This document shows positions 3,701 through 39,586 of a stretch of 52,847 nucleotides of DNA, one piece after another (the stretch's first letter is position 1; each line of letters opens with the position of its first letter). The position numbers and the translations under genes are program-made. This DNA comes from a virus (lineage: Duplodnaviria; Caudoviricetes): positions 1 to 52,847 of IMG/VR virus record IMGVR_UViG_3300025141_000135, one strand, 5' to 3'. The notes below the pieces were generated by a model. The model did not search any database and was not told the origin of the DNA. It worked only from the letters and a program-made list of their open reading frames with translations.

Positions 3701-3900
3701 AATGACTTTTTGCCTGTCATAGTCTGGGCTGTCGACTTGCCCATTATGCCATCTGTGCTAGTTAGGTCTACATTCGCCTCATCTATATTTGTAGACTCTA
3801 AGAAGGTAAGTACATTGTTTAACCAATCTCTTACCTGTTCGGCATCCATCTCATCGCCAGGATCTGGCAGAGGAGTTGATGGACGAGTTACTGTTGCCAT
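796..3900 (-). CDS. tail fibre/receptor-binding protein with C-terminal peptidase S74-type intramolecular chaperone
   Basis: 1034 aa, G/S/T/A-rich. Contains fibre motifs (ERMRINSGG, GNVGIGTSSP) and a C-terminal SDLKLKQDI...FGVVAQELETVFPGLV segment followed by a coiled coil. Confidence 0.9.
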   Translation of the reverse strand: MATVTRPSTPLPDPGDEMDAEQVRDWLNNVLTFLESTNIDEANVDLTSTDGIMGKSTAQTMTGKKSFESTNAAAAGIVEVAEFGLDPASGTAADNDGGRLVLYADDDAGTASDLVNLDWVLTDASTGSKDSEFRIRALVAGTMTEFLTAGATAAGVGRVAITGDMTVSDDVSLSSDSAVLNFGADSDISLTHVADTGLTMAGAHANGTNLQINNTASDGDSVIQFALSGTVQYSLGVEDGDSDKFVINYGTGSLGAQPALEIDSSGNTSIGGTLGTTGAATLASLVCTAGATFGGGYGSTGATISTAGVIQADGAITSSGAVTGSTLAGTISTAAQNSITSASSLATVGTITSGTWSGVIDGSATMTLGSDATGDIYYRDASGFLERLGASTDGYVLTTGGAGTVPAWESVPGGGISFSGSTADGMVTYGSSSSAIVESTLTFASDALTATSTSADLPKIELKNTHADATAGKFVFTKDPGSGQGADNDVMGTIEFFGTDASNNAAEKLAYIDAYVVEADHGSEAAGLRVYVAENDATNTLGLSVTGSASADGRIDATIGAGSASVVTIPGNIDLDGDIDVNGTLEADAITLGGTALGSLYSPIAGSSSIVTVGTIGTGVWQGTDVGVAHGGTGLSTVGTSQILTGNGTGALTSESNLIFDGTRLGVNNASPSTVDGNTDVIVVGDGNANADVIMYAPTDGNGVLGWTDTADTTNQGYIQYEHDSVNALKFGTAATERMRINSGGTVLISTVNGSPSLDLGVHDTSNALIATPESMYFSIDSNDDQTDRAYYFGHNANTTSATVLMKIQEDGNVGIGTSSPTSPFDVRSSRSDGAVVDCINSSGSAPRGMSMKMTGDVTGSSSYYFLYLHDNSGERFIVHTDGDVVNANNSYGAISDLKLKQDITDVRSYWDDFKAVKFRKYRLKSDVAEDAESPMRFGVVAQELETVFPGLVEDAPDYSSQDVPILDADGNETYNIDEDGNRVIATHNKMVNLGTVTKRAKYSILAQIGLKVVQELQARLEAAEAKIAALEAA

Positions 3901-3908
3901 ACGATCAT

Positions 3909-3931
3909 CTCCCTAACAAATTGTTACAGAG
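3909..3931. promoter_or_regulatory. 23-bp palindrome copy 1 (CTCCCTAACAAATTGTTACAGAG)
   Basis: Between the nozzle and fibre genes; its minus-strand GGGAG doubles as the fibre RBS. Confidence 0.85.
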
Positions 3932-12023: not shown

Positions 12024-13007
12024 CTAGGTAATCCCCTGAAGGACGCCGTGGGCACTGCGAAGATTAGTACCCAGATTACCCTGATACAAGATCGGAGCAA
12101 TAAAGGCATCCTGGTTCACCGGGTTCTGCAAGCCACCATCAGCCATAGCGAAATCAGCGTCACGATGGACAAAACCGAAGATATGCTTCGAGTTAAGGAC
12201 ATACAGATAACCCGAGTCAACCTTCGACTCCCAGTTAATGCTAGCGCCACGGAAAGTCGGGCGGCTAGACAGATCACTCGTACCACCGCCAGTATAGCGA
12301 ATAGCAGGAACAACCAAGGATTCCAGGGTCTCAGCAACAGACTGAGTGGTAAAGATACCATCAGGCTCGCCCTCTACACCGGCAACTTCCGTGCAATCGT
12401 TATAGATCGTACGCAAGTTCGGAAGCAAGTTGACAGCGCCATTACCAACAGATAGAACAGCGTTATTCCGCCAAGCACTATTATTAGCGGAGTTAATATC
12501 CCCGTAAGTGCCAGTGGCAGGAGTCCCGTCAACCATAGCCTTAAGGCCCGTAATCTGCTTCGAGCCGTTGGAAGTGCCACCGCTGTAAGCATCCGAAGCC
12601 AAGTTATCCGCCAACGTGGACTCAGCCTGAAAGATTTTGTCTTTCGTCAAGTCACGAATACGACTTTCGCCCTGGTTCGAACGTTTGTCAAGACCAGAAA
12701 TCACGACACTAGTCGCTGCCTGTTTCCAGTTGAAAAAGGCGTTCGTGATTCCTTCGTACCCGGTAGGATCAAGAGCCTCAAGCCCTGAATAGCGCTTGAA
12801 GTTCCCACTACCTTCATACATAACCGGGACTTTAATACGCTCACCACCGGTGAGTCGTTTGATACGGTTGCCTTCCCTGATCCACGACCAGAAAGGGCTA
12901 CGCTTATGTACCTGATCTCGAAGCATCCCCGAGTCCAGGTAATTCATAATTGTCGAGGAAAGTAATGGTCCCCAGACAATCGTAGGTGCGCCATCTCCGA
13001 CAGCCAT
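12024..13007 (-). CDS. major capsid protein (HK97 fold)
   Basis: 327 aa after the scaffold; GGERIKVPVMY, FFNWKQAATSV, ITGLKAMVD, YGDINSANNSAWRN and terminal HGVLQGIT are typical major-capsid motifs. Confidence 0.88.
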   Translation of the reverse strand: MAVGDGAPTIVWGPLLSSTIMNYLDSGMLRDQVHKRSPFWSWIREGNRIKRLTGGERIKVPVMYEGSGNFKRYSGLEALDPTGYEGITNAFFNWKQAATSVVISGLDKRSNQGESRIRDLTKDKIFQAESTLADNLASDAYSGGTSNGSKQITGLKAMVDGTPATGTYGDINSANNSAWRNNAVLSVGNGAVNLLPNLRTIYNDCTEVAGVEGEPDGIFTTQSVAETLESLVVPAIRYTGGGTSDLSSRPTFRGASINWESKVDSGYLYVLNSKHIFGFVHRDADFAMADGGLQNPVNQDAFIAPILYQGNLGTNLRSAHGVLQGIT

Positions 13008-21307: not shown

Positions 21308-21330
21308 CTCTATAACAATTTGTTATGGAG
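21308..21330. promoter_or_regulatory. 23-bp palindrome copy 4 (CTCTATAACAATTTGTTATGGAG)
   Basis: Overlaps the TerL stop codon and the portal RBS region. Confidence 0.85.
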
Positions 21331-22960
21331 CGTCAAGGCCCCAGTTATCATCTAACGGACTGGCCTCTGGAAAAGGAACTACAATACCTTCGTTCCGTCT
21401 TGGCATCCCTCTTCTCGCCCTGGTGTTTTTCATAACGTACTCATCGAAGGTACTACTACTTGGAACAATCTTTGTAGGTCCAGTTAACACCTCAGCCGCG
21501 CCTATCGCGCTGCGGAGCTTTGAGAGCTGCATACCTAACAAAGCCAAGCAATCAATCTGATCGTCATACCTAGCATTGGGAAATCTACTTATCTCGTGCT
21601 CAAGCTCTCCCAGCCAAGTAGCATTCTCAGGGACATGAAAGATTCCCATCTGCATTGCCCCTGCTATAGCTCCAGCTCTATTAACTGAATCTTTAGAACC
21701 TCTCCCTATAACACTAACATCCTCTAAGACCGTCCAGCAACCAAGTTCCGCTTTACGCTTCCTAAGAAGAGGCCCAACAACCTTACCCATCATAACACGC
21801 TCATGTAGCCATTTCAAAGGCTTATACTTAAGCATCAACTCACAAGCACTCTCCACCCCATCAAATATCTCCACTTGGTCCCTAAACACCTCAACAAGGT
21901 ATATCATACCTCGCTCATCTATGCCGAAGACCATATGAACAGTGTAGTCTCCAGAACCCTTGGTCAGTGCATAATCACTGGTTCCGTAATAAGTCATATT
22001 TTCAGGAATCTTACTATCAGGAACCTTCTTCATCCAACCAGGCTGAAAAACATCCCCCTCATCGCTGACCGGTTTCTGCTGATGCAAAGCCATAAAAAGG
22101 GACGGATTGCGCGCACGAATAGCGTGGAGCTCCTCAGTTGAGCGCATGTTAGGGCCTTCCGGCAAGAGCGCTTCGCCTGGCGCTCGGCCCAAAGGATCAT
22201 CCGCTTCTGCGAGGGAGGGAAGCCTTATAATGTCCCAATACTCTTCGCCTGCTTCGTTGAGCTTTTCAATCCGTCCCCCCAAGTCATCGTCATGCCACCT
22301 CTGCATGATTAGTATAACAGCACCTGGACCATCCTTATAAGGACGCAGACGGTTGAGCAAAACGCTCGCGTACCAATCCCAAACAGCTCTACGATTATTT
22401 AGACTGAGGGCACTTTCGTAACTCTTGAAAGGGTCATCTATGACAGCTATGTGTGCGTGGAAGCCTATCAGCCCGCCTAGTACACCCTCAGCCTTATACT
22501 CTCCACCCTGATGCGTCTTCCATTCATTCATGCTCTGAGCATCATCAGCGATCTTGATCCCAGGAAACACTAAACGAAAGCGGTCATCTTTTATTATATT
22601 CCTAACATTCCTTCCAAACCCAAAGGCCAGATCTGCTGAATAGCTTGCCTGGATGAACTCCAATGTCGGGTTTCTGCCGAAGAACCAAGAAGGAAATATC
22701 TCACTAGAAATCCTGGATTTACCAATAGCAGGAGGGACAAATATCGCCAGCCGCCGAAGTTTCCCTTGCTCGACAGCTTGCAGCTTCTCGGCTATATGAT
22801 AATGAACCTGGTAAGGATCATAACCATCATCCATGAACTGAGCGTACTTTACCAGACTACCAGCCGCCTGTTTGCGCCTGATAAGCTCTCTGGCAACCTC
22901 AGCTGGATCCTGGGCCTCAGGTGTTAGGGCCACAGGAGTATTGGCGATCAATTCATTCAC
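21323..22960 (-). CDS. terL: terminase large subunit
   Basis: Walker A-like VPPAIGKS, Walker B AVIDDP, MQRWHDDDL; RNase H-like C-terminus (SDYA...GDYT, FPNARYDDQIDCL). Confidence 0.95.
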   Translation of the reverse strand: MNELIANTPVALTPEAQDPAEVARELIRRKQAAGSLVKYAQFMDDGYDPYQVHYHIAEKLQAVEQGKLRRLAIFVPPAIGKSRISSEIFPSWFFGRNPTLEFIQASYSADLAFGFGRNVRNIIKDDRFRLVFPGIKIADDAQSMNEWKTHQGGEYKAEGVLGGLIGFHAHIAVIDDPFKSYESALSLNNRRAVWDWYASVLLNRLRPYKDGPGAVILIMQRWHDDDLGGRIEKLNEAGEEYWDIIRLPSLAEADDPLGRAPGEALLPEGPNMRSTEELHAIRARNPSLFMALHQQKPVSDEGDVFQPGWMKKVPDSKIPENMTYYGTSDYALTKGSGDYTVHMVFGIDERGMIYLVEVFRDQVEIFDGVESACELMLKYKPLKWLHERVMMGKVVGPLLRKRKAELGCWTVLEDVSVIGRGSKDSVNRAGAIAGAMQMGIFHVPENATWLGELEHEISRFPNARYDDQIDCLALLGMQLSKLRSAIGAAEVLTGPTKIVPSSSTFDEYVMKNTRARRGMPRRNEGIVVPFPEASPLDDNWGLDAP

Positions 22961-24371: not shown

Positions 24372-24451
24372 ACCTTATAAGGGTACGAGGGAGCTCAATA
24401 GTGCGGAGCAGGGCTGGAAGGGACAGTACACACCACCTCGCTCCCCCGGCC

Positions 24452-24631
24452 CTAAGCTTCTACAGTTTCTTCAATCCCTCTTTTCCGCAAACCCATTCTG
24501 CTCCTAACGATTCTCTGCACCACATCCAGGTCCCAGCCCAACTCTTCAGCGATGCCCAATTCGGACAGGCCGCTGTCAAGAAGCGCGAAGACCTTCCTAT
24601 GCTCACTCCACAAATCGTCTACTCTTATCAT
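24452..24631 (-). CDS. 59-aa helix-turn-helix protein (not in ORF track)
   Basis: Manual translation MIRVDDLWSEHRKVFALLDSGLSELGIAEELGWDLDVVQRIVRSRMGLRKRGIEETVEA; first gene after a sigma70-like promoter. Confidence 0.75.
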   Translation of the reverse strand: MIRVDDLWSEHRKVFALLDSGLSELGIAEELGWDLDVVQRIVRSRMGLRKRGIEETVEA

Positions 24632-24657
24632 CTCGTCCCTAAAACCTTTCTACCATA

Positions 24658-24686
24658 AATGTATATAAGAGAGTGCCACTATGCAA
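24658..24686 (-). promoter_or_regulatory. sigma70-type promoter, leftward (TTGCAT-N17-TACATT)
   Basis: 17-bp spacing; the same hexamers occur in the rightward promoters. Confidence 0.6.
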
Positions 24687-24727
24687 ACCATATTTGCACA
24701 TTCTTTCCCGCCAAGCAAACCCTCCAA

Positions 24728-24750
24728 CTCTGTAACAATTTGTTACGGAG
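24728..24750. promoter_or_regulatory. 23-bp palindrome copy 5 (CTCTGTAACAATTTGTTACGGAG)
   Basis: Non-coding; about 40 bp upstream of the leftward -35. Confidence 0.85.
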
Positions 24751-25234
24751 TTCACAACGCGCCACCAACGAGAAGCCTGTCTTCCCCACCCATCCCCCTT
24801 GACGTTTTGAAAATTAGCTCAGAAATTTTTAGGAGCTGAAATATAATAAACGTGTGCACGCGCGGGATGCCGCGACAACTAGTTTGGCATGCCTAGCATC
24901 CGTTCTGTTGGCAATACTTTTTTCGCCACTATAATGAATATATACATTATAGTAATAAAAAACATAACAACTATTTTATTAGTACTTTCATAAGTATAAT
25001 AAAAACAACTATTTAGATGTTTTGTCAGTGTCAATATGACATATTTTTCTATGCTATTTTGACACTAGTTTACATAACAATTACACTAGGTTGTGTACTT
25101 TCATGACATTTTTTGACATTTCTATGCCAAGTTGTCAATAATATTATCATAACTCGTTTAAAAACAACTAGATACGTCCACTAGTTTAATTCCGATACAT
25201 GAACTAGGCATTTAATTGTATGTAAATATATGTA

Positions 25235-25247
25235 AATAAACGAGTTG
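25235..25247 (+). promoter_or_regulatory. IHF-like site (AATAAACGAGTTG)
   Basis: One mismatch to WATCAANNNNTTR, about -57 to -45 from the predicted sigma54 start. Confidence 0.4.
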
Positions 25248-25264
25248 CACCCAATACTTTTTGT

Positions 25265-25281
25265 TTGGCACGGGATTTGCA
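25265..25281 (+). promoter_or_regulatory. sigma54 (-24/-12) promoter 1: TTGGCACGGGATTTGCA
   Basis: Exact match to YTGGCACG-N4-TTGCW, with GG-N10-GC spacing. Confidence 0.75.
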
Positions 25282-25386
25282 TTGTTTTTTTTTCCAGCGT
25301 TTTTTGTTACACTCGAAAAATAAATTTATTCACATTTTTACGGGAGTATATATATCGACAGGTTCGCATGCTAGAAATACCATAGT

Positions 25387-25568
25387 TCCGTACCATAGAC
25401 AAGTACCGGCCTAGGGCATACGCCTAGGTGAATACCACGCAGGGAGGCTTGCGCGTGGCGGGGAGTACGGATACCAGCACATTGAGACTAGCGACAAAAG
25501 TAGTGGGAGGAGCGGCTCGCGCCATGATCCCAACTCGGTGCTACTCGCGATAACACCTCATACGGTGC
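25387..25568 (+). ncRNA. candidate structured non-coding RNA/leader
   Basis: GC-richer island in AT-rich non-coding DNA with nested helices (see findings); no family recognised. Confidence 0.4.
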
Positions 25569-25616
25569 AAGGATTCAACGCTAGAATGGACACTAGACAA
25601 ATAGTTTTCGGAACTA

Positions 25617-25653
25617 GGGTCTAGTGGGATTCTTGTTGGGGCCATCTAGTTTC
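25617..25653 (+). repeat. 5' arm of a 37-bp long-range inverted repeat
   Basis: Pairs with 26167-26203 (29 Watson-Crick, 7 G-U, 1 U-U). Confidence 0.85.
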
Positions 25654-25684
25654 CCACAACAAAATCTAGGGGAAACAAAGAATC

Positions 25685-26152
25685 ATGGCTAAAAAATTCC
25701 AGAACTTTCTAGTTGAGGATATGAACAAGAAAGTAGTCCACGGTGGACACAAGCATGAATTACGGATAGCGTTTACCGAGGACTTGACCGCGGAGATCGT
25801 GAAAAAGGGATTCCATGACTACTTGATGCGTATGGCCGCTGAGAAGTATCGCAAAATCTCGGGCCAAATCAAGGAATATCAAACTAGTGTCGAGGATCGC
25901 CAGATGGCAAAAGAGATCCATGACACTGGAGTATGGAAGACCACGGACCGGTTCATCCTGGGAACGCTCCGCACATCGGTAGTTGTCGAAAAAGTACCAA
26001 TGACTGCTCAGGAAACGGTTGCCGTCATGACGCTCGAGGAACTCAAGGCCGCGGTGGCTTTGGCCGAACAGGTTGCGAAAGAAAACACAAACGAGGACTC
26101 GGCTGAGGATACAAACGAGGACTCGAATGATATGGAACTCGCTGCTGGATAA
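25685..26152 (+). CDS. early hypothetical protein with acidic repetitive tail (155 aa)
   Basis: RBS GGGGGA; ends in NTNEDSAEDTNEDSND. Confidence 0.8.
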   Translation: MAKKFQNFLVEDMNKKVVHGGHKHELRIAFTEDLTAEIVKKGFHDYLMRMAAEKYRKISGQIKEYQTSVEDRQMAKEIHDTGVWKTTDRFILGTLRTSVVVEKVPMTAQETVAVMTLEELKAAVALAEQVAKENTNEDSAEDTNEDSNDMELAAG

Positions 26153-26166
26153 ATTAGTACACATAT

Positions 26167-26203
26167 GAGACTAGGTGGCCCCAACTAGGATCCTGCTAGG
26201 TCC
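26167..26203 (+). repeat. 3' arm of the 37-bp long-range inverted repeat
   Basis: Pairs with 25617-25653. Confidence 0.85.
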
Positions 26204-26234
26204 GACAATCCTTTCATAAAACTAGGGGATTCTA

Positions 26235-26468
26235 ATGCCTGATAGAATAGATGTGGCCGCAGACGAACTATGGCGAGCGGTGATGGAGAACCTTGGGGAT
26301 TCTATACCATTCCCAGCAAGAGGAGAAAGACCTCACGTTGAGCTAAAGACTGTGAGTATAAAACCCTTTAGCAATGCGGACCTGGAGGATGCGAGGAATA
26401 GCGAGGAGGCTTACCACGGCTTGCACATACACGCTACCGCAAGCATAGATATAAGGAGAAAGATATGA
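26235..26468 (+). CDS. hypothetical protein (77 aa)
   Basis: RBS AGGGGA. Confidence 0.65.
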   Translation: MPDRIDVAADELWRAVMENLGDSIPFPARGERPHVELKTVSIKPFSNADLEDARNSEEAYHGLHIHATASIDIRRKI

Positions 26469-26575
26469 AAGATTCTGGCCGCAAGCGCACTAGGCTGTCG
26501 CGGAAACTTTCGTTCAAGGCCCGTAAAAAGGCCCGCGAGAAGGTTCGAGACAGTAGGCGAAAGAACCGCCGATAG
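26465..26575 (+). CDS. 36-aa Arg/Lys-rich peptide (not in ORF track)
   Basis: AAGGAG RBS and ATGA overlap; MKDSGRKRTRLSRKLSFKARKKAREKVRDSRRKNRR; followed by a terminator. Confidence 0.7.
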   Translation: MKDSGRKRTRLSRKLSFKARKKAREKVRDSRRKNRR

Positions 26576-26582
26576 GCGGAAC

Positions 26583-26622
26583 ATAGGCTCGGGGGTGAGG
26601 ATTCCCTCGGGCCTATTTTTTT
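26583..26622 (+). terminator. intrinsic terminator
   Basis: ATAGGCTCGGGG...CCCTCGGGCCTAT stem followed by a T run. Confidence 0.8.
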
Positions 26623-26651
26623 GCTTGGTTGGGAGAGAAAAAAGCTTTTAG

Positions 26652-26688
26652 AAAAGCTCGCACACAAGATCGTGTGTGGGCTTTTTTT
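26652..26688 (+). terminator. second intrinsic terminator
   Basis: AAAAGCTCGCACAC-loop-GTGTGTGGGCTTTTTTT. Confidence 0.7.
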
Positions 26689-26744
26689 GTGCTTATTCCC
26701 GAGGGTGGAAAACTATTTAATATATTTTAAAAAGTTCGCGCGTA

Positions 26745-26761
26745 TTGGCACGGGTCTTGCT
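26745..26761 (+). promoter_or_regulatory. sigma54 (-24/-12) promoter 2: TTGGCACGGGTCTTGCT
   Basis: Exact match to YTGGCACG-N4-TTGCW. Confidence 0.75.
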
Positions 26762-26947
26762 ATATATAGAACGCGTGTTCATTATATAATACGGAGACAG
26801 GAACAAACAAAAAAGTATTGGGGAGAAAGATACTAGGATACTTTTGTAATTTCCACTCATTCATTTTACATTTTCCTACCGTTCTACTATCCTACCGTAC
26901 CCCCCATTCGACACAATCAAAAAAGGTCCAGGTGAGGTGGTGGTATA

Positions 26948-26993
<46 letters not shown>

Positions 26994-27094
26994 AACAAAC
27001 ACAACTTATTCCAATTTACCGATGGCGGATAGGGGGTGTGGTAGACCTATAGATAGTAGGAAAATGTATTTCTCGCCACTGTTTTACCTATGCT

Positions 27095-27117
27095 CTCCAT
27101 AACAAATTGTTACGGAG
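27095..27117. promoter_or_regulatory. 23-bp palindrome copy 6 (CTCCATAACAAATTGTTACGGAG)
   Basis: Ends 15 bp upstream of a TTGACA -35. Confidence 0.85.
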
Positions 27118-27132
27118 TTGTGAAAAATTAAT

Positions 27133-27161
27133 TTGACAACTCGCAATACATTTATTATATT
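27133..27161 (+). promoter_or_regulatory. sigma70-type promoter TTGACA-N17-TATATT
   Basis: Near-consensus, upstream of 27198. Confidence 0.8.
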
Positions 27162-27197
27162 ATATTATCGTCATTTTACAATCAAACGGAGTTTCTT

Positions 27198-27650
27198 ATG
27201 ACTAGTAAAACTCGTGGTGCAGGACTGAACATTCAGACCTACGTTGATCCTTGTACCGTGGCTAGCCTAGTAAAGTTACTTGCCAGCCGTGGCATTGGTT
27301 TCAATCGGACCTATTCGGGGCTCTTGAAAGCCCTAATGGAAGAAGTTCTTTCCGATGCTCGAATGGAACAATTCGATGAGTTTGTGGATCCTGAATCCGC
27401 CCTGGAGTACCTAGCCACATCAGGTTTTTCTATGAGCCAGGTGTCCGGCTGGAATGAAAAGCGGGTTTTGAATAGTATGAATCGGGCCTCGATGGATGAG
27501 GCTCGACAAGAAACTATTGCCGAGAAAGAAACGATGACTATCGAGGACTCGAAACGAGCCGGAGAAATAGTCATGCGGCAACTGACCGGGGAAGCCACGG
27601 ATGATGAGGTCCAATGGTACTTGGATTATCAGCGGCGAAATAAATTATGA
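27198..27650 (+). CDS. hypothetical protein, possible ribbon-helix-helix N-terminus
   Basis: LNIQTYVD strand, helix, G-turn, then TYSGLLKALMEEVL helix. Confidence 0.7.
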   Translation: MTSKTRGAGLNIQTYVDPCTVASLVKLLASRGIGFNRTYSGLLKALMEEVLSDARMEQFDEFVDPESALEYLATSGFSMSQVSGWNEKRVLNSMNRASMDEARQETIAEKETMTIEDSKRAGEIVMRQLTGEATDDEVQWYLDYQRRNKL

Positions 27651-37192: not shown

Positions 37193-39586
37193 ATGAGTCT
37201 AGCACCTTACTCTTCTGGTAATCCAGAGACAGCCAAGTACGTCATCATTGGCGAAGCTCCTGGAGCAGAAGAAGAACAAAGGGGCGGAGCTTTTATCGGA
37301 GCAGCTGGAAGGCTATTGGACGATCTTCTTAGAAACGCAGGTATTGCGAGGGACGAAGTCTACTTCGACAATGTGTTTCAGTTCAGGCCTACTGGTAATG
37401 ACTTGTCTCCATATATAAAGTTCGCAAAGACAGTAACTGAGACCGATCAATTCATACAGGCCCAATCAGCACTAGCTGCGAGACTGGACGTAACTAGAGC
37501 TAATGTCATTATAACTATGGGGAATGTTCCTACTTATGCTTTGACAGGACTCACTCCTATAACTAAACAAAGAGGTAGTGTTGTATTATCAACTCTTCTA
37601 AAGTATCGAAAGGTTATTCCTTGTATTCATCCAGCTGCTGCTTTAAGAGAGTACCTAGCTCGATATAATATAGTTAATGATCTAAGAAGGGCCAAAGATC
37701 AAGCTGGATTCCCTGAAGTAAAACACCTGACCAGAGACCTTATCCTAAACCCTTCGTTTGCAGATACTATGAGTTTTCTAGATACTTGTAATAAGGCAAA
37801 GGAGGTAGCTTACGACATTGAGATTCGAGGTCAGGAACTGAGCCACATAGCTTTCGCTATAAACCCTAGTGTCGCTATATGTATTCCCTTCGTTGAGGGT
37901 ATGAAAGACTACTGGGCTCCAGACCAAGAAGCGTCTGTCATGTTGAAGATCGCTGAAGTCCTTGAGAACCCGGAGGTCGCTAAGATAGGCCAGAACCTTT
38001 CTTTCGATGCTACTTTTATGTACTACAAATACGGGATTCATGTAGCTCCCCTACAAGACACTATGATCGCTGCAGGAATTTTATTCCCAGACTTTCCCAA
38101 AGGTCTGGACTTTCTTGTGTCTCTCTACTGTGATGGAGAGCCTTACTACAAGGATGATGGAAAGGAATGGTTCAAGAATCCTTTTGCCTCTGAGGAAATC
38201 TTCCGAAGATACAACGCTATGGACGCTGCAGTGCTTATGGAGATCTACCCGAAGCAGGTTAAAGAACTTGAGCGCATGGGGAATAAGATTACTTACGACC
38301 GTCAGAAGTCTCTTCTTCACCCTCTTGTGTATGCTGGCAACAAAGGTATCCGTATGGACACAGAAGGGATGGTAAAAGCTGGCGAAGGCTGCAACGAAAG
38401 AATAGATGGCTTGACTAGAGAGCTGGCTGAAGCATCTGGACGAACGGACCTTAATCCTAATTCCCCAAAACAACTAAAGGAATACTTCTATGTAGATAAG
38501 GGAATCAAACCTTACACTAGAAAGGGCTCGATATCTGTAGACGACAAGGCTCTTAAACGCCTGGCTATGAACGGACATCAAGAGGCTGATATCATACTGA
38601 AACTAAGGCACGAGAGAAAGATGCTCGGGACTTATTACAATATGAAGTTAGACGAAGATGGCAGGATGCGTTGTAGTTTCAATCCAGTAGGAACTGAGCA
38701 AGGACGTATATCTAGCTCGAAGACTATAAGGGGAACTGGGGCGAATCTGCAGAATCAGCCGCCGGAAACTCAGGCCATGATGCTTGCGGATCCTGGATGC
38801 CTCCTGATAAATCAAGACCTAGGCCAGGCCGAGAATCGTGTGGTCGCTTATATCGCTGGCGAACACCGAATGATTAATGCTTTTGAAAAAGGTATAGACA
38901 TTCATAAGCAAACAGGATCCTTAATATCTGAAGTGCCTATAGAAGAAGTAACTGACGACCAAAGGTCTGATGGAAAGAAAGCGAACCATGGTCTTAACTA
39001 TGACTTAGGATACAAGTCCTTTGCTTTGATCTATCAGATGCCTGAGAAGCAAGCGAAATTTATTGTTGACAGGTATCACTCTGTTTATCCTGGAGTACGT
39101 CAATGGCACAACTCTGTGAGAGAAGAACTCAGCCGACAAGCTAGAACCCTCGTGAACTGCTATGGAAGGAAGCGGGTGTTCCTGGACCGTTGGGGACATG
39201 AGCTATTCAAGGTAGCGTATAGCTACTGTCCTCAATCTACAGTGGCCGAGAAGATGAACCAAGATGGCGTCTTATTTATATATGATCGACAAGACTTATT
39301 TCCAGAAGTGCAATTCCTTAACACCATTCATGACTCTATACGCTACCAGGTTCCTTTGTCTGTGGGCTATGAGAGAATCATAGAAGTCATAAAGGCTGTT
39401 AAGGCTAGTCTCGAAAAGCCTATTACCTGGAGGGGACAGTCTTTCTCTATTCCGGCTGACACAGAACTGGGCTTTAGTTATGACAAGAAAACTATGGTCG
39501 AATGGAAAGCCCATTATGTAGACAATACTCATGACGATAAGTTGGCCGAGGAGCTGGAAATTTATGTCAGGGAGCAGGCGGCTTGA
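37193..39586 (+). CDS. polA: family A DNA polymerase with N-terminal uracil-DNA glycosylase-like domain and 3'-5' exonuclease (SPO1-like architecture)
   Basis: UDG: GEAPG...FIGAAG...HPAAALR. Exonuclease: YDIE, QNLSFD, YNAMD. Polymerase motifs A DLGQAENR, B KKANHGLNY, C IHDS. Confidence 0.95.
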   Translation: MSLAPYSSGNPETAKYVIIGEAPGAEEEQRGGAFIGAAGRLLDDLLRNAGIARDEVYFDNVFQFRPTGNDLSPYIKFAKTVTETDQFIQAQSALAARLDVTRANVIITMGNVPTYALTGLTPITKQRGSVVLSTLLKYRKVIPCIHPAAALREYLARYNIVNDLRRAKDQAGFPEVKHLTRDLILNPSFADTMSFLDTCNKAKEVAYDIEIRGQELSHIAFAINPSVAICIPFVEGMKDYWAPDQEASVMLKIAEVLENPEVAKIGQNLSFDATFMYYKYGIHVAPLQDTMIAAGILFPDFPKGLDFLVSLYCDGEPYYKDDGKEWFKNPFASEEIFRRYNAMDAAVLMEIYPKQVKELERMGNKITYDRQKSLLHPLVYAGNKGIRMDTEGMVKAGEGCNERIDGLTRELAEASGRTDLNPNSPKQLKEYFYVDKGIKPYTRKGSISVDDKALKRLAMNGHQEADIILKLRHERKMLGTYYNMKLDEDGRMRCSFNPVGTEQGRISSSKTIRGTGANLQNQPPETQAMMLADPGCLLINQDLGQAENRVVAYIAGEHRMINAFEKGIDIHKQTGSLISEVPIEEVTDDQRSDGKKANHGLNYDLGYKSFALIYQMPEKQAKFIVDRYHSVYPGVRQWHNSVREELSRQARTLVNCYGRKRVFLDRWGHELFKVAYSYCPQSTVAEKMNQDGVLFIYDRQDLFPEVQFLNTIHDSIRYQVPLSVGYERIIEVIKAVKASLEKPITWRGQSFSIPADTELGFSYDKKTMVEWKAHYVDNTHDDKLAEELEIYVREQAA

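Follow-up and report, generated by a model that had tools for sequence, protein, structure and literature searches.

The stretch of DNA analyzed here, called the window below, comprises positions 1 to 52,847 of IMG/VR virus record IMGVR_UViG_3300025141_000135 (Duplodnaviria; Caudoviricetes) and represents a complete or near-complete phage genome of 52.8 kb. Its RNA can form a 37-base-pair (bp) helix between the two flanks of a small open reading frame (ORF), ORF155; we refer to such a helix, together with the gene that it brackets, as a clamp. The genes for the large terminase (21323-22960), the major head protein (12024-13007), an SU10-type adaptor and tail proteins lie on the - strand. The + strand, from ≈ 25.6 kb on, encodes DNA polymerase (37193-39586), primase, a PD-(D/E)XK nuclease and a ParB-methyltransferase. 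The clamp locus lies between these divergent blocks and heads the first rightward transcription unit, presumably an early phage operon. The runs that contain the window sequence are marine metagenomes, and none of the 24 listed is an RNA run. The nearest cultured terminase is only 40.5% identical, so the phage has no close cultured relative; comparison of a phage collection with positions 24500-27500 (blastn) or with ORF155 (tblastn) yielded no match. The window contains no tRNAs.

A long-range helix encloses ORF155

The 5' arm of the helix (25617-25653) and its 3' arm (26167-26203) pair on the + strand through 29 Watson-Crick pairs, 7 G-U pairs and one U-U, which accounts for all 37 positions. 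These coordinates and counts had been given in an initial annotation of the DNA, and recomputation reproduced them exactly. On the - strand, the same arms form 29 Watson-Crick pairs and 8 mismatches, one at every non-Watson-Crick position; as a DNA inverted repeat, they are identical at merely 29 of 37 positions. The 513-nucleotide (nt) loop between the arms (25654-26166) holds the ribosome-binding site and the whole 155-amino acid ORF, as had also been annotated. The Shine-Dalgarno (SD)-like run GGGGA (25669-25673, + strand) is unpaired in the loop, separated by 15 nt from the 5' arm and by 11 nt from the ATG that follows. ORF155 (25685-26152, + strand) begins with the ATG at 25685 and ends with a stop codon at 26150-26152, and the 3' arm starts 14 nt past that codon. 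SD, ORF and stop codon all lie outside the arms. With these distances of 15 nt between the 5' arm and the SD-like run and of 14 nt between the stop codon and the 3' arm, the message can be translated while the helix is formed. The CTAGGGG context of the ORF155 SD recurs before the next gene, at 26222-26228.

We scored ungapped pairing between all positions up to 3 kb apart, window-wide. The clamp helix (score 78) was the top long-range helix of the 52.8-kb window. The runner-up (score 54) consisted of two copies of a dispersed palindrome, and the remainder of the 15 helices listed scored 42 or less. Twelve dinucleotide-preserving shuffles of the window gave maxima of 39-46 (mean 41.8, standard deviation 2.2). 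For a 641-nt stretch (z = -4.59, with none of 20 shuffles folding as well), the helix was part of both the minimum free energy (MFE) fold and the centroid fold, and so it was for a 1410-nt model transcript. When the 75-nt flanks of 30 + strand ORFs were paired with each other, ORF155 gave a duplex of -65.0 kcal/mol, versus -9.5 to -35.9 for the other 29 ORFs. Among the ORFs compared, a flank-to-flank clamp is used once in the window. A single off-diagonal flank duplex was stronger (-70.6) and represented an intergenic hairpin region paired with itself. Rfam gave no matches at the gathering score across the whole window; at E <= 1, positions 24400-27300 gave two weak matches only, both on the terminator region.

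Comparison of ORF155 with its counterpart in one relative (L016) revealed differences at 53, 31 and 96 first, second and third codon positions, respectively, over 154 codons. Since the differences from relatives cluster at third codon positions and the eight homologues aligned (alignment A1) have conserved blocks in common, ORF155 is, on this comparative evidence, a real protein-coding gene. An N-terminal extension through the 5' arm (gene calls P0002 and P0008) was rejected: a 1-nt indel between the window and close relatives breaks the frame. The predicted protein has an isoelectric point of 5.3 and an acidic C-terminal tail. Its family is tiny, with 7 clusters in the 90% collection, and a profile search of 1.84 billion representatives found 3 ORF155-family clusters. 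We obtained no match of ORF155 in Pfam or PHROG, of its L024 homologue in PHROG, or of profile A1 among PDB sequences at E <= 1. The ESM Atlas returned unnamed viral clusters only, with scores (0.88-0.89) below the trust level. Structure prediction of the enclosed protein, which had been suggested in the initial annotation, did not yield a usable fold: the AlphaFold2 model based on the 8-sequence alignment had a mean predicted local distance difference test (pLDDT) score of 40.6.

Conservation and covariation of the helix

Contigs and loci with candidate relatives are designated L011-L017, L024, L025 and G001; L013 is the same genome as the window. An ORF155 homologue was present on seven further contigs. 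The helix was kept, and was the top long-range pairing, in all six scanned loci that contain the whole gene and both flanks (L013, L014, L015, L016, L017 and L024). The L025 contig ends inside the gene, and the 5' arm alone is visible. One more contig matched the arm pattern and was outside the helix scan of the six loci. L011 and L012, with 32% identity over 59 residues, contain neither a matching ORF nor a flanking helix; we regarded them as probable spurious matches and excluded them. The genome_contigs collection contained no protein relative of ORF155, and a further viral scan with alignment A7 retrieved no new lineage.

Compared with L016 and L017, the coding sequence differs at 39.0% of nucleotides and the arms at 5 of 74 positions; all five arm changes maintain or improve + strand pairing. 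Compared with L024, the coding sequence differs at 42.9% of nucleotides and the arms at 17 of 74 positions. The L024 helix is 46 bp long and in the same register, its outer half being of different sequence. Judged from these alignments, L024 is the decisive relative for conservation of the helix. Covariation of the arms was analyzed, as had been proposed in the initial annotation, using an alignment of 6 sequences and 37 pairs (A5). Twenty-four of the 37 pairs were invariant, 7 varied on one side, and 6 had changed on both sides with pairing kept. In this alignment, 98.2% of the cells were paired, a value reached by 0 of 500 shuffles; slid controls all gave 0. A single position of the helix is U-U in the window, A-U in L016 and L017, and U-A in L024.

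The tetranucleotide CTAG is dense in 25000-26300, with two copies in the 5' arm and three in the 3' arm, and under-represented window-wide (240 found versus 327 expected). We rejected this motif as the cause of arm conservation, since the outer CTAGs are lost in L024 with pairing kept.

A second clamp in two relatives

L024 and L025 contain a second clamp (2177-2507 and 2192-2507, respectively), in which a 26-bp helix surrounds a 78-amino acid acidic ORF. It is located between a homologous leader (see below) and the ORF155-type clamp. The helix comprises 23 Watson-Crick and 3 G-U pairs in L024 and 22 and 4 such pairs in L025, with no mismatch. It encloses 279 or 264 nt that include a GGAG ribosome-binding site and the ORF, the ATG being 23 nt past one arm and the stop codon 19 nt before the other; this spacing is similar to that of the first clamp. 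The ORFs of L024 and L025 differ by an in-frame 15-nt indel. No homologue of the 78-amino acid ORF was found in the window or in the viral_contigs collection outside L024 and L025, and the ORF had no PHROG match. The arm sequences of the second clamp are unrelated to those of the first. A second, unrelated 26-bp helix with similar spacing thus surrounds another gene, and the design has therefore been reused. From the sequences at hand, pairing of the flanks around one translatable cistron is used at least two times in this phage group.

Selection on RNA or on DNA

G-U and A-C oppositions are informative on the level at which the arms are selected. Across lineages, the clamp helix has 11 positions that are G-U in at least one sequence and 1 position that is A-C. 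The second helix of L024 and L025 contributes 4 G-U and 0 A-C, which brings the two-stem total to 15 versus 1. This asymmetry has P = 2.6e-4 under symmetry (p = 0.5) and P = 6.4e-4 when the G+T share at third codon positions of the + strand (0.533) is used. The claim of the initial annotation that selection acts on RNA and not on a DNA inverted repeat thus received strong support from the 15:1 ratio of G-U to A-C, from the double changes at 6 of 37 pairs and from conservation of the helix in relatives with a coding sequence divergence of 39-43%. We consider it very probable that the helix is selected at the RNA level, on the + (coding) strand.

Several points weigh against this reading. Strand-biased mutation could inflate the asymmetry, although an extreme bias of 0.61 still gives P = 4e-3. 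Coordinated changes in the two arms are likewise expected in a DNA inverted repeat bound by one protein; because such a repeat also predicts them, only the G-U/A-C asymmetry separates RNA from DNA. Moreover, all 6 compensatory pairs fall on one branch, the L024 lineage. Finally, pairing alone would not call for the degree of conservation seen in the inner 24 pairs and in ≈ 30 nt of flank outside either arm. An additional sequence-specific function of the helix region is therefore likely, and it is plausible that an added reader recognizes the region sequence-specifically, either the nuclease itself or an RNA-binding protein.

If selection acted on DNA, the arms might terminate a small mobile cassette or serve as crossover sites at which a segment is inverted and the gene switched. 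They are indeed inverted repeats around one gene, L024 and L025 have an extra repeat-flanked gene that is absent from the window lineage, and a protein-bound inverted repeat would fit the coordinated changes. The 15:1 ratio and the limited identity of the arms as DNA argue the other way, as do the unrelated arm sequences of the two clamps. Scans of 32 ORFs of at least 120 amino acids against Pfam and PHROGs, smaller ORFs being mostly outside their range, gave no match to recombinase, invertase or transposase families. The arm element is single-copy in the window. Elsewhere, viral_contigs had the arm patterns in 3 related contigs of the same phage group, in each case at the orthologous site and nowhere else, and genome_contigs had none. 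DNA inversion and transposon-like target duplications, which the initial annotation had named as outcomes speaking against its proposal, were looked for. We saw neither a target-site duplication nor any other direct repeat flanking the arms, and the contigs of 4 public DNA runs, which drop rare variants, contained no inversion or deletion joints. In one of the runs (X3), contigs break exactly at the arms, one of them with L016-type flanks; co-occurring diverged strains with common arms would give such breaks. On balance, we regard a DNA-level repeat as very improbable.

A hairpin in single-stranded DNA of the + strand, acting in replication, injection or recombination in the manner of an integron attC site, would tolerate G-T oppositions, and the strand-specific signature would arise likewise. 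Closing a 513-nt loop in this way, however, needs a persistent single strand of more than 580 nt, and such a hairpin gives no reason for the precise spacing of the arms to the SD and stop codon of a sense gene in two independent clamps. Nor was an integrase-type gene found among the ORFs scanned. This explanation appears even more remote than the preceding one.

Transcript context of the clamp

Three tandem sigma-70-like promoter matches (24908-24935, 25059-25087 and 25113-25142, + strand) precede the clamp, each agreeing with the consensus at 10-11 of 12 hexamer positions; they are consensus matches only. They sit ahead of the leader described below, in an AT-rich divergent stretch with several short direct repeats. 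Tandem early promoters are the layout of T7-like phages, which these matches recall. Further downstream lies a sigma-54-like -24/-12 element, TGGCACGGGATTTGC (25266-25280, + strand), an exact match to the pattern TGGCAC-N5-TTGC, which we take to be the sigma-54 consensus. It is a candidate promoter of the clamp transcript. The 25266-25280 block is invariant in 4 aligned relatives and has variable flanks, and L024 and L025 likewise have TGGCAC-N5-TTGC upstream of their homologous leader. A second exact match occurs at 26746-26760 (+ strand), and each of the two follows a terminator-like hairpin. The phage ORFs scanned gave no match to an enhancer-binding-protein domain. A sigma-54-dependent phage operon would be unusual.

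Directly upstream of the clamp, RNAalifold predicted a structured leader RNA of ≈ 185 nt with two helical domains (25385-25568, + strand). In an alignment of 6 sequences, 17 of the 43 predicted pairs had pairing-keeping changes on both sides. The leader is homologous in L014, L015, L017, L024 and L025, and its region had no Rfam match at E <= 1. Judged from this model, the leader may be a new phage RNA that is released separately by cleavage of the clamp.

Downstream of the clamp, the ORF list contains ORF77 (26235-26468, + strand), whose stop codon overlaps (ATGA) the start of a 36-amino acid, Arg/Lys-rich ORF, ORF36 (26465-26575, + strand). Lys and Arg make up 19 of the 36 residues of the ORF36 product, which has an isoelectric point of 12.0 and looks like an arginine-rich RNA-binding peptide. 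The start of ORF36 is conserved in G001, and a PHROG search with it gave no match. Two tandem intrinsic-terminator-like hairpins end the unit (26583-26616 and 26650-26687, + strand). In the terminator scan they had 13 and 16 pairs, respectively, with a T run after each.

Two other elements of the region and the genome were observed. Downstream of the second sigma-54-like element, a 22-bp long-range helix (span 26892-27044, + strand), formed by 26892-26913 and a second arm ending at 27044, encloses a genomic poly(A) tract of ≈ 39 nt (26954-26992). The independent assembly L014 has the same poly(A) helix at 3708-3845, with a tract of ≈ 28 A, and the sister record L013 stops just past the tract, in sequence of low quality. 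In addition, the window contains ten copies of a perfect or near-perfect 23-bp palindrome of the CTCCGTAACAAATTGTTACGGAG type, of which 0 are expected by chance. The copies, at 3909, 11189, 13950, 21308, 24728, 27095, 32149, 35616, 46515 and 52017, are all intergenic, and the palindrome is also found in G001. At least five of them are 7-12 nt upstream of a start codon, and the terminal GGAG could be a ribosome-binding site sequestered in a 10-bp hairpin. Possible roles of the palindrome are those of a translational operator, of a site for processing or of a DNA site for a regulator.

A model for processing of the ORF155 transcript

We propose that the helix is a processing stem for the RNase III of the host, from which ORF155 mRNA is excised as an end-paired, monocistronic message. 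Taken as a whole, we judge this model to be moderately probable. Once transcribed, the 3' arm would pair with the 5' arm and close the 513-nt loop, with the ribosome-binding site, the 155 codons and the stop codon left unpaired. Host RNase III, whose presence and specificity we assume, would then cut both strands of the 37-bp helix (46 bp in the relative) in a staggered manner, 2-nt 3' overhangs being typical of class-1 enzymes. The double cut would give rise to three products: the structured leader RNA, the monocistronic ORF155 mRNA and a downstream ORF77/ORF36 message. Through the inner part of the helix, the 5' and 3' ends of the ORF155 mRNA would stay base-paired. We infer that this pairing would protect the message against 5'-end-dependent endonucleases as well as 3' exonucleases, and that the protein would in consequence be synthesized efficiently.

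The dimensions of the helix are compatible with cleavage. In the accessible portion of PMC3867540, the idealized Escherichia coli RNase III substrate is 22 bp, or approximately two helical turns. The clamp helix exceeds this length (37 bp with one U-U), as do the 46-bp helix of L024 and the 26-bp helix of the second clamp. In Bacillus subtilis, mRNA targets of RNase III are long-range intramolecular structures that span hundreds of nucleotides, according to the excerpted text of PMC11780869. On these two grounds, the analogy that the initial annotation drew with RNase III stems of rRNA precursors is reasonable, as far as these partial sources go. The circularization that it considered possible found no support: the 32 larger ORFs scanned contained no RNA ligase family, and the staggered ends left by RNase III should not amount to a ligatable nick.

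The same structural and evolutionary evidence, including the free translation signals, would hold for a clamp that is not cut. The helix would then act as a structural insulator or roadblock: the ORF would fold independently of the structured leader, and scanning or exonucleolytic RNases would be kept away from the cistron. A precedent is the B. subtilis hbs mRNA, in which a 14-bp pairing of the 5' untranslated region (UTR) with the 3' UTR modulates RNase access without RNase III (available part of PMC5737220). The conserved inner base pairs could be RNase III antideterminants, a concept outlined in the excerpt of PMC3867540. On the other hand, a helix paired at 36 of 37 positions, and of 46 bp in L024, is far beyond the 22-bp substrate, and features that would let it escape class-1 RNase III were not identified. 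We therefore see an uncut clamp as rather unlikely.

RNase III cleavage can also destabilize a message, a further point against the model of a stabilized mRNA. Cutting of the helix might serve down-regulation or timing, if it triggered decay of the ORF155 mRNA or uncoupled the downstream cistrons to give a short pulse of protein. The evidence for the helix applies here as well, and pairing of the 5' and 3' UTRs of Staphylococcus aureus icaR creates an RNase III substrate and lowers expression (PMC3868564, as excerpted). Unlike in icaR, however, the 3' region does not pair with the ORF155 SD, which remains uncovered in the loop, 15 nt from the arm. A staggered cut, moreover, would leave both ends in a duplex and offer poor entry to exonucleases. 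We regard this explanation as improbable.

The second clamp permits a broader, tentative and on present evidence unlikely, extension of the processing model. The accessory genes of the first rightward operon might be portable RNA-clamp cassettes, each consisting of 5' arm, ribosome-binding site, ORF and 3' arm and each having its own helix of at least 26 bp. Host RNase III would dice the transcript into gene-sized, end-paired messages and release the structured leader RNA separately. The cassette boundaries would be the units of gene gain and loss, as exemplified by the 78-amino acid gene that is confined to L024 and L025. If true, this would be an mRNA version of the plan by which rRNA operons are processed.

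Significance and comparison with known systems

That a complete RNA can be released by a long-range helix is textbook knowledge for rRNA. In bacterial and phage mRNA, to our knowledge, helices of this kind have been described only in the form of short UTR-UTR contacts or local intergenic hairpins. In the open-access literature of PMC and in bioRxiv, subscription journals being outside the scope of the search, we found no phage or bacterial case of a conserved helix this long that brackets a whole protein-coding cistron. As far as can be read from the genomes compared here, a helix of 37-46 bp is maintained in the phage, and the only logic visible in it is that it brackets one complete, translatable cistron. 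If RNase III cuts as expected, the clamp would be a natural example of an end-paired mRNA that is excised from an operon. It would then give a direct handle on the effect of end pairing on the life and translation of bacterial mRNA. Builders of synthetic operons could also use the clamp as a natural, ready-made insulator part. Because the phage appears to protect expression of ORF155 specially, the protein is a candidate host-takeover or anti-defense factor.

In the early region of phage T7, RNase III sites cut the polycistronic early RNA into gene-sized messages, for example on either side of gene 0.3. The clamp locus resembles this arrangement in that ORF155 is the first small gene, with an acidic-tailed product, after tandem strong promoters and a leader, and in that a presumed cut by host RNase III on each side would yield a discrete message with structured ends. 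In T7, each intergenic region has one site, a local hairpin, whereas the clamp is a single helix formed by both flanks of the gene. Because one helix is built from the two flanks, both cuts would follow from one binding event and the ends of the product would be paired with each other.

The flanks of 16S and 23S rRNA form helices that are the RNase III processing stems of bacterial rRNA operons. There, as in the clamp, sequences that are hundreds of nucleotides or more apart form a long helix around a complete functional RNA within a longer transcript. In both cases, cutting of both strands would release the enclosed unit, and a structured non-coding RNA lies upstream in the same transcript. 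Unlike the rRNA stems, the phage clamp encloses an mRNA of 155 codons with its own ribosome-binding site, and its cleavage is a prediction (comparison based partly on the accessible portion of PMC3867540).

Close parallels in mRNA are icaR and hbs, in which regions up- and downstream of one ORF pair and thereby control access of ribonucleases, as described in the excerpts of PMC3868564 and PMC5737220. The icaR pairing covers the SD and represses translation (same excerpt of PMC3868564), whereas the phage helix leaves the SD free. In hbs, the pairing is 14 bp and concerns RNase Y, according to the part of PMC5737220 at hand; the phage helix is 37-46 bp and lies inside a polycistronic transcript. 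The clamp also resembles the B. subtilis RNase III targets of PMC11780869, which, in the text available, have paired cleavage positions on opposite sides of a stem and arms separated by up to hundreds of nucleotides. Experimental mapping in a cellular transcriptome identified those targets, whereas the phage element is supported by comparative evidence only.

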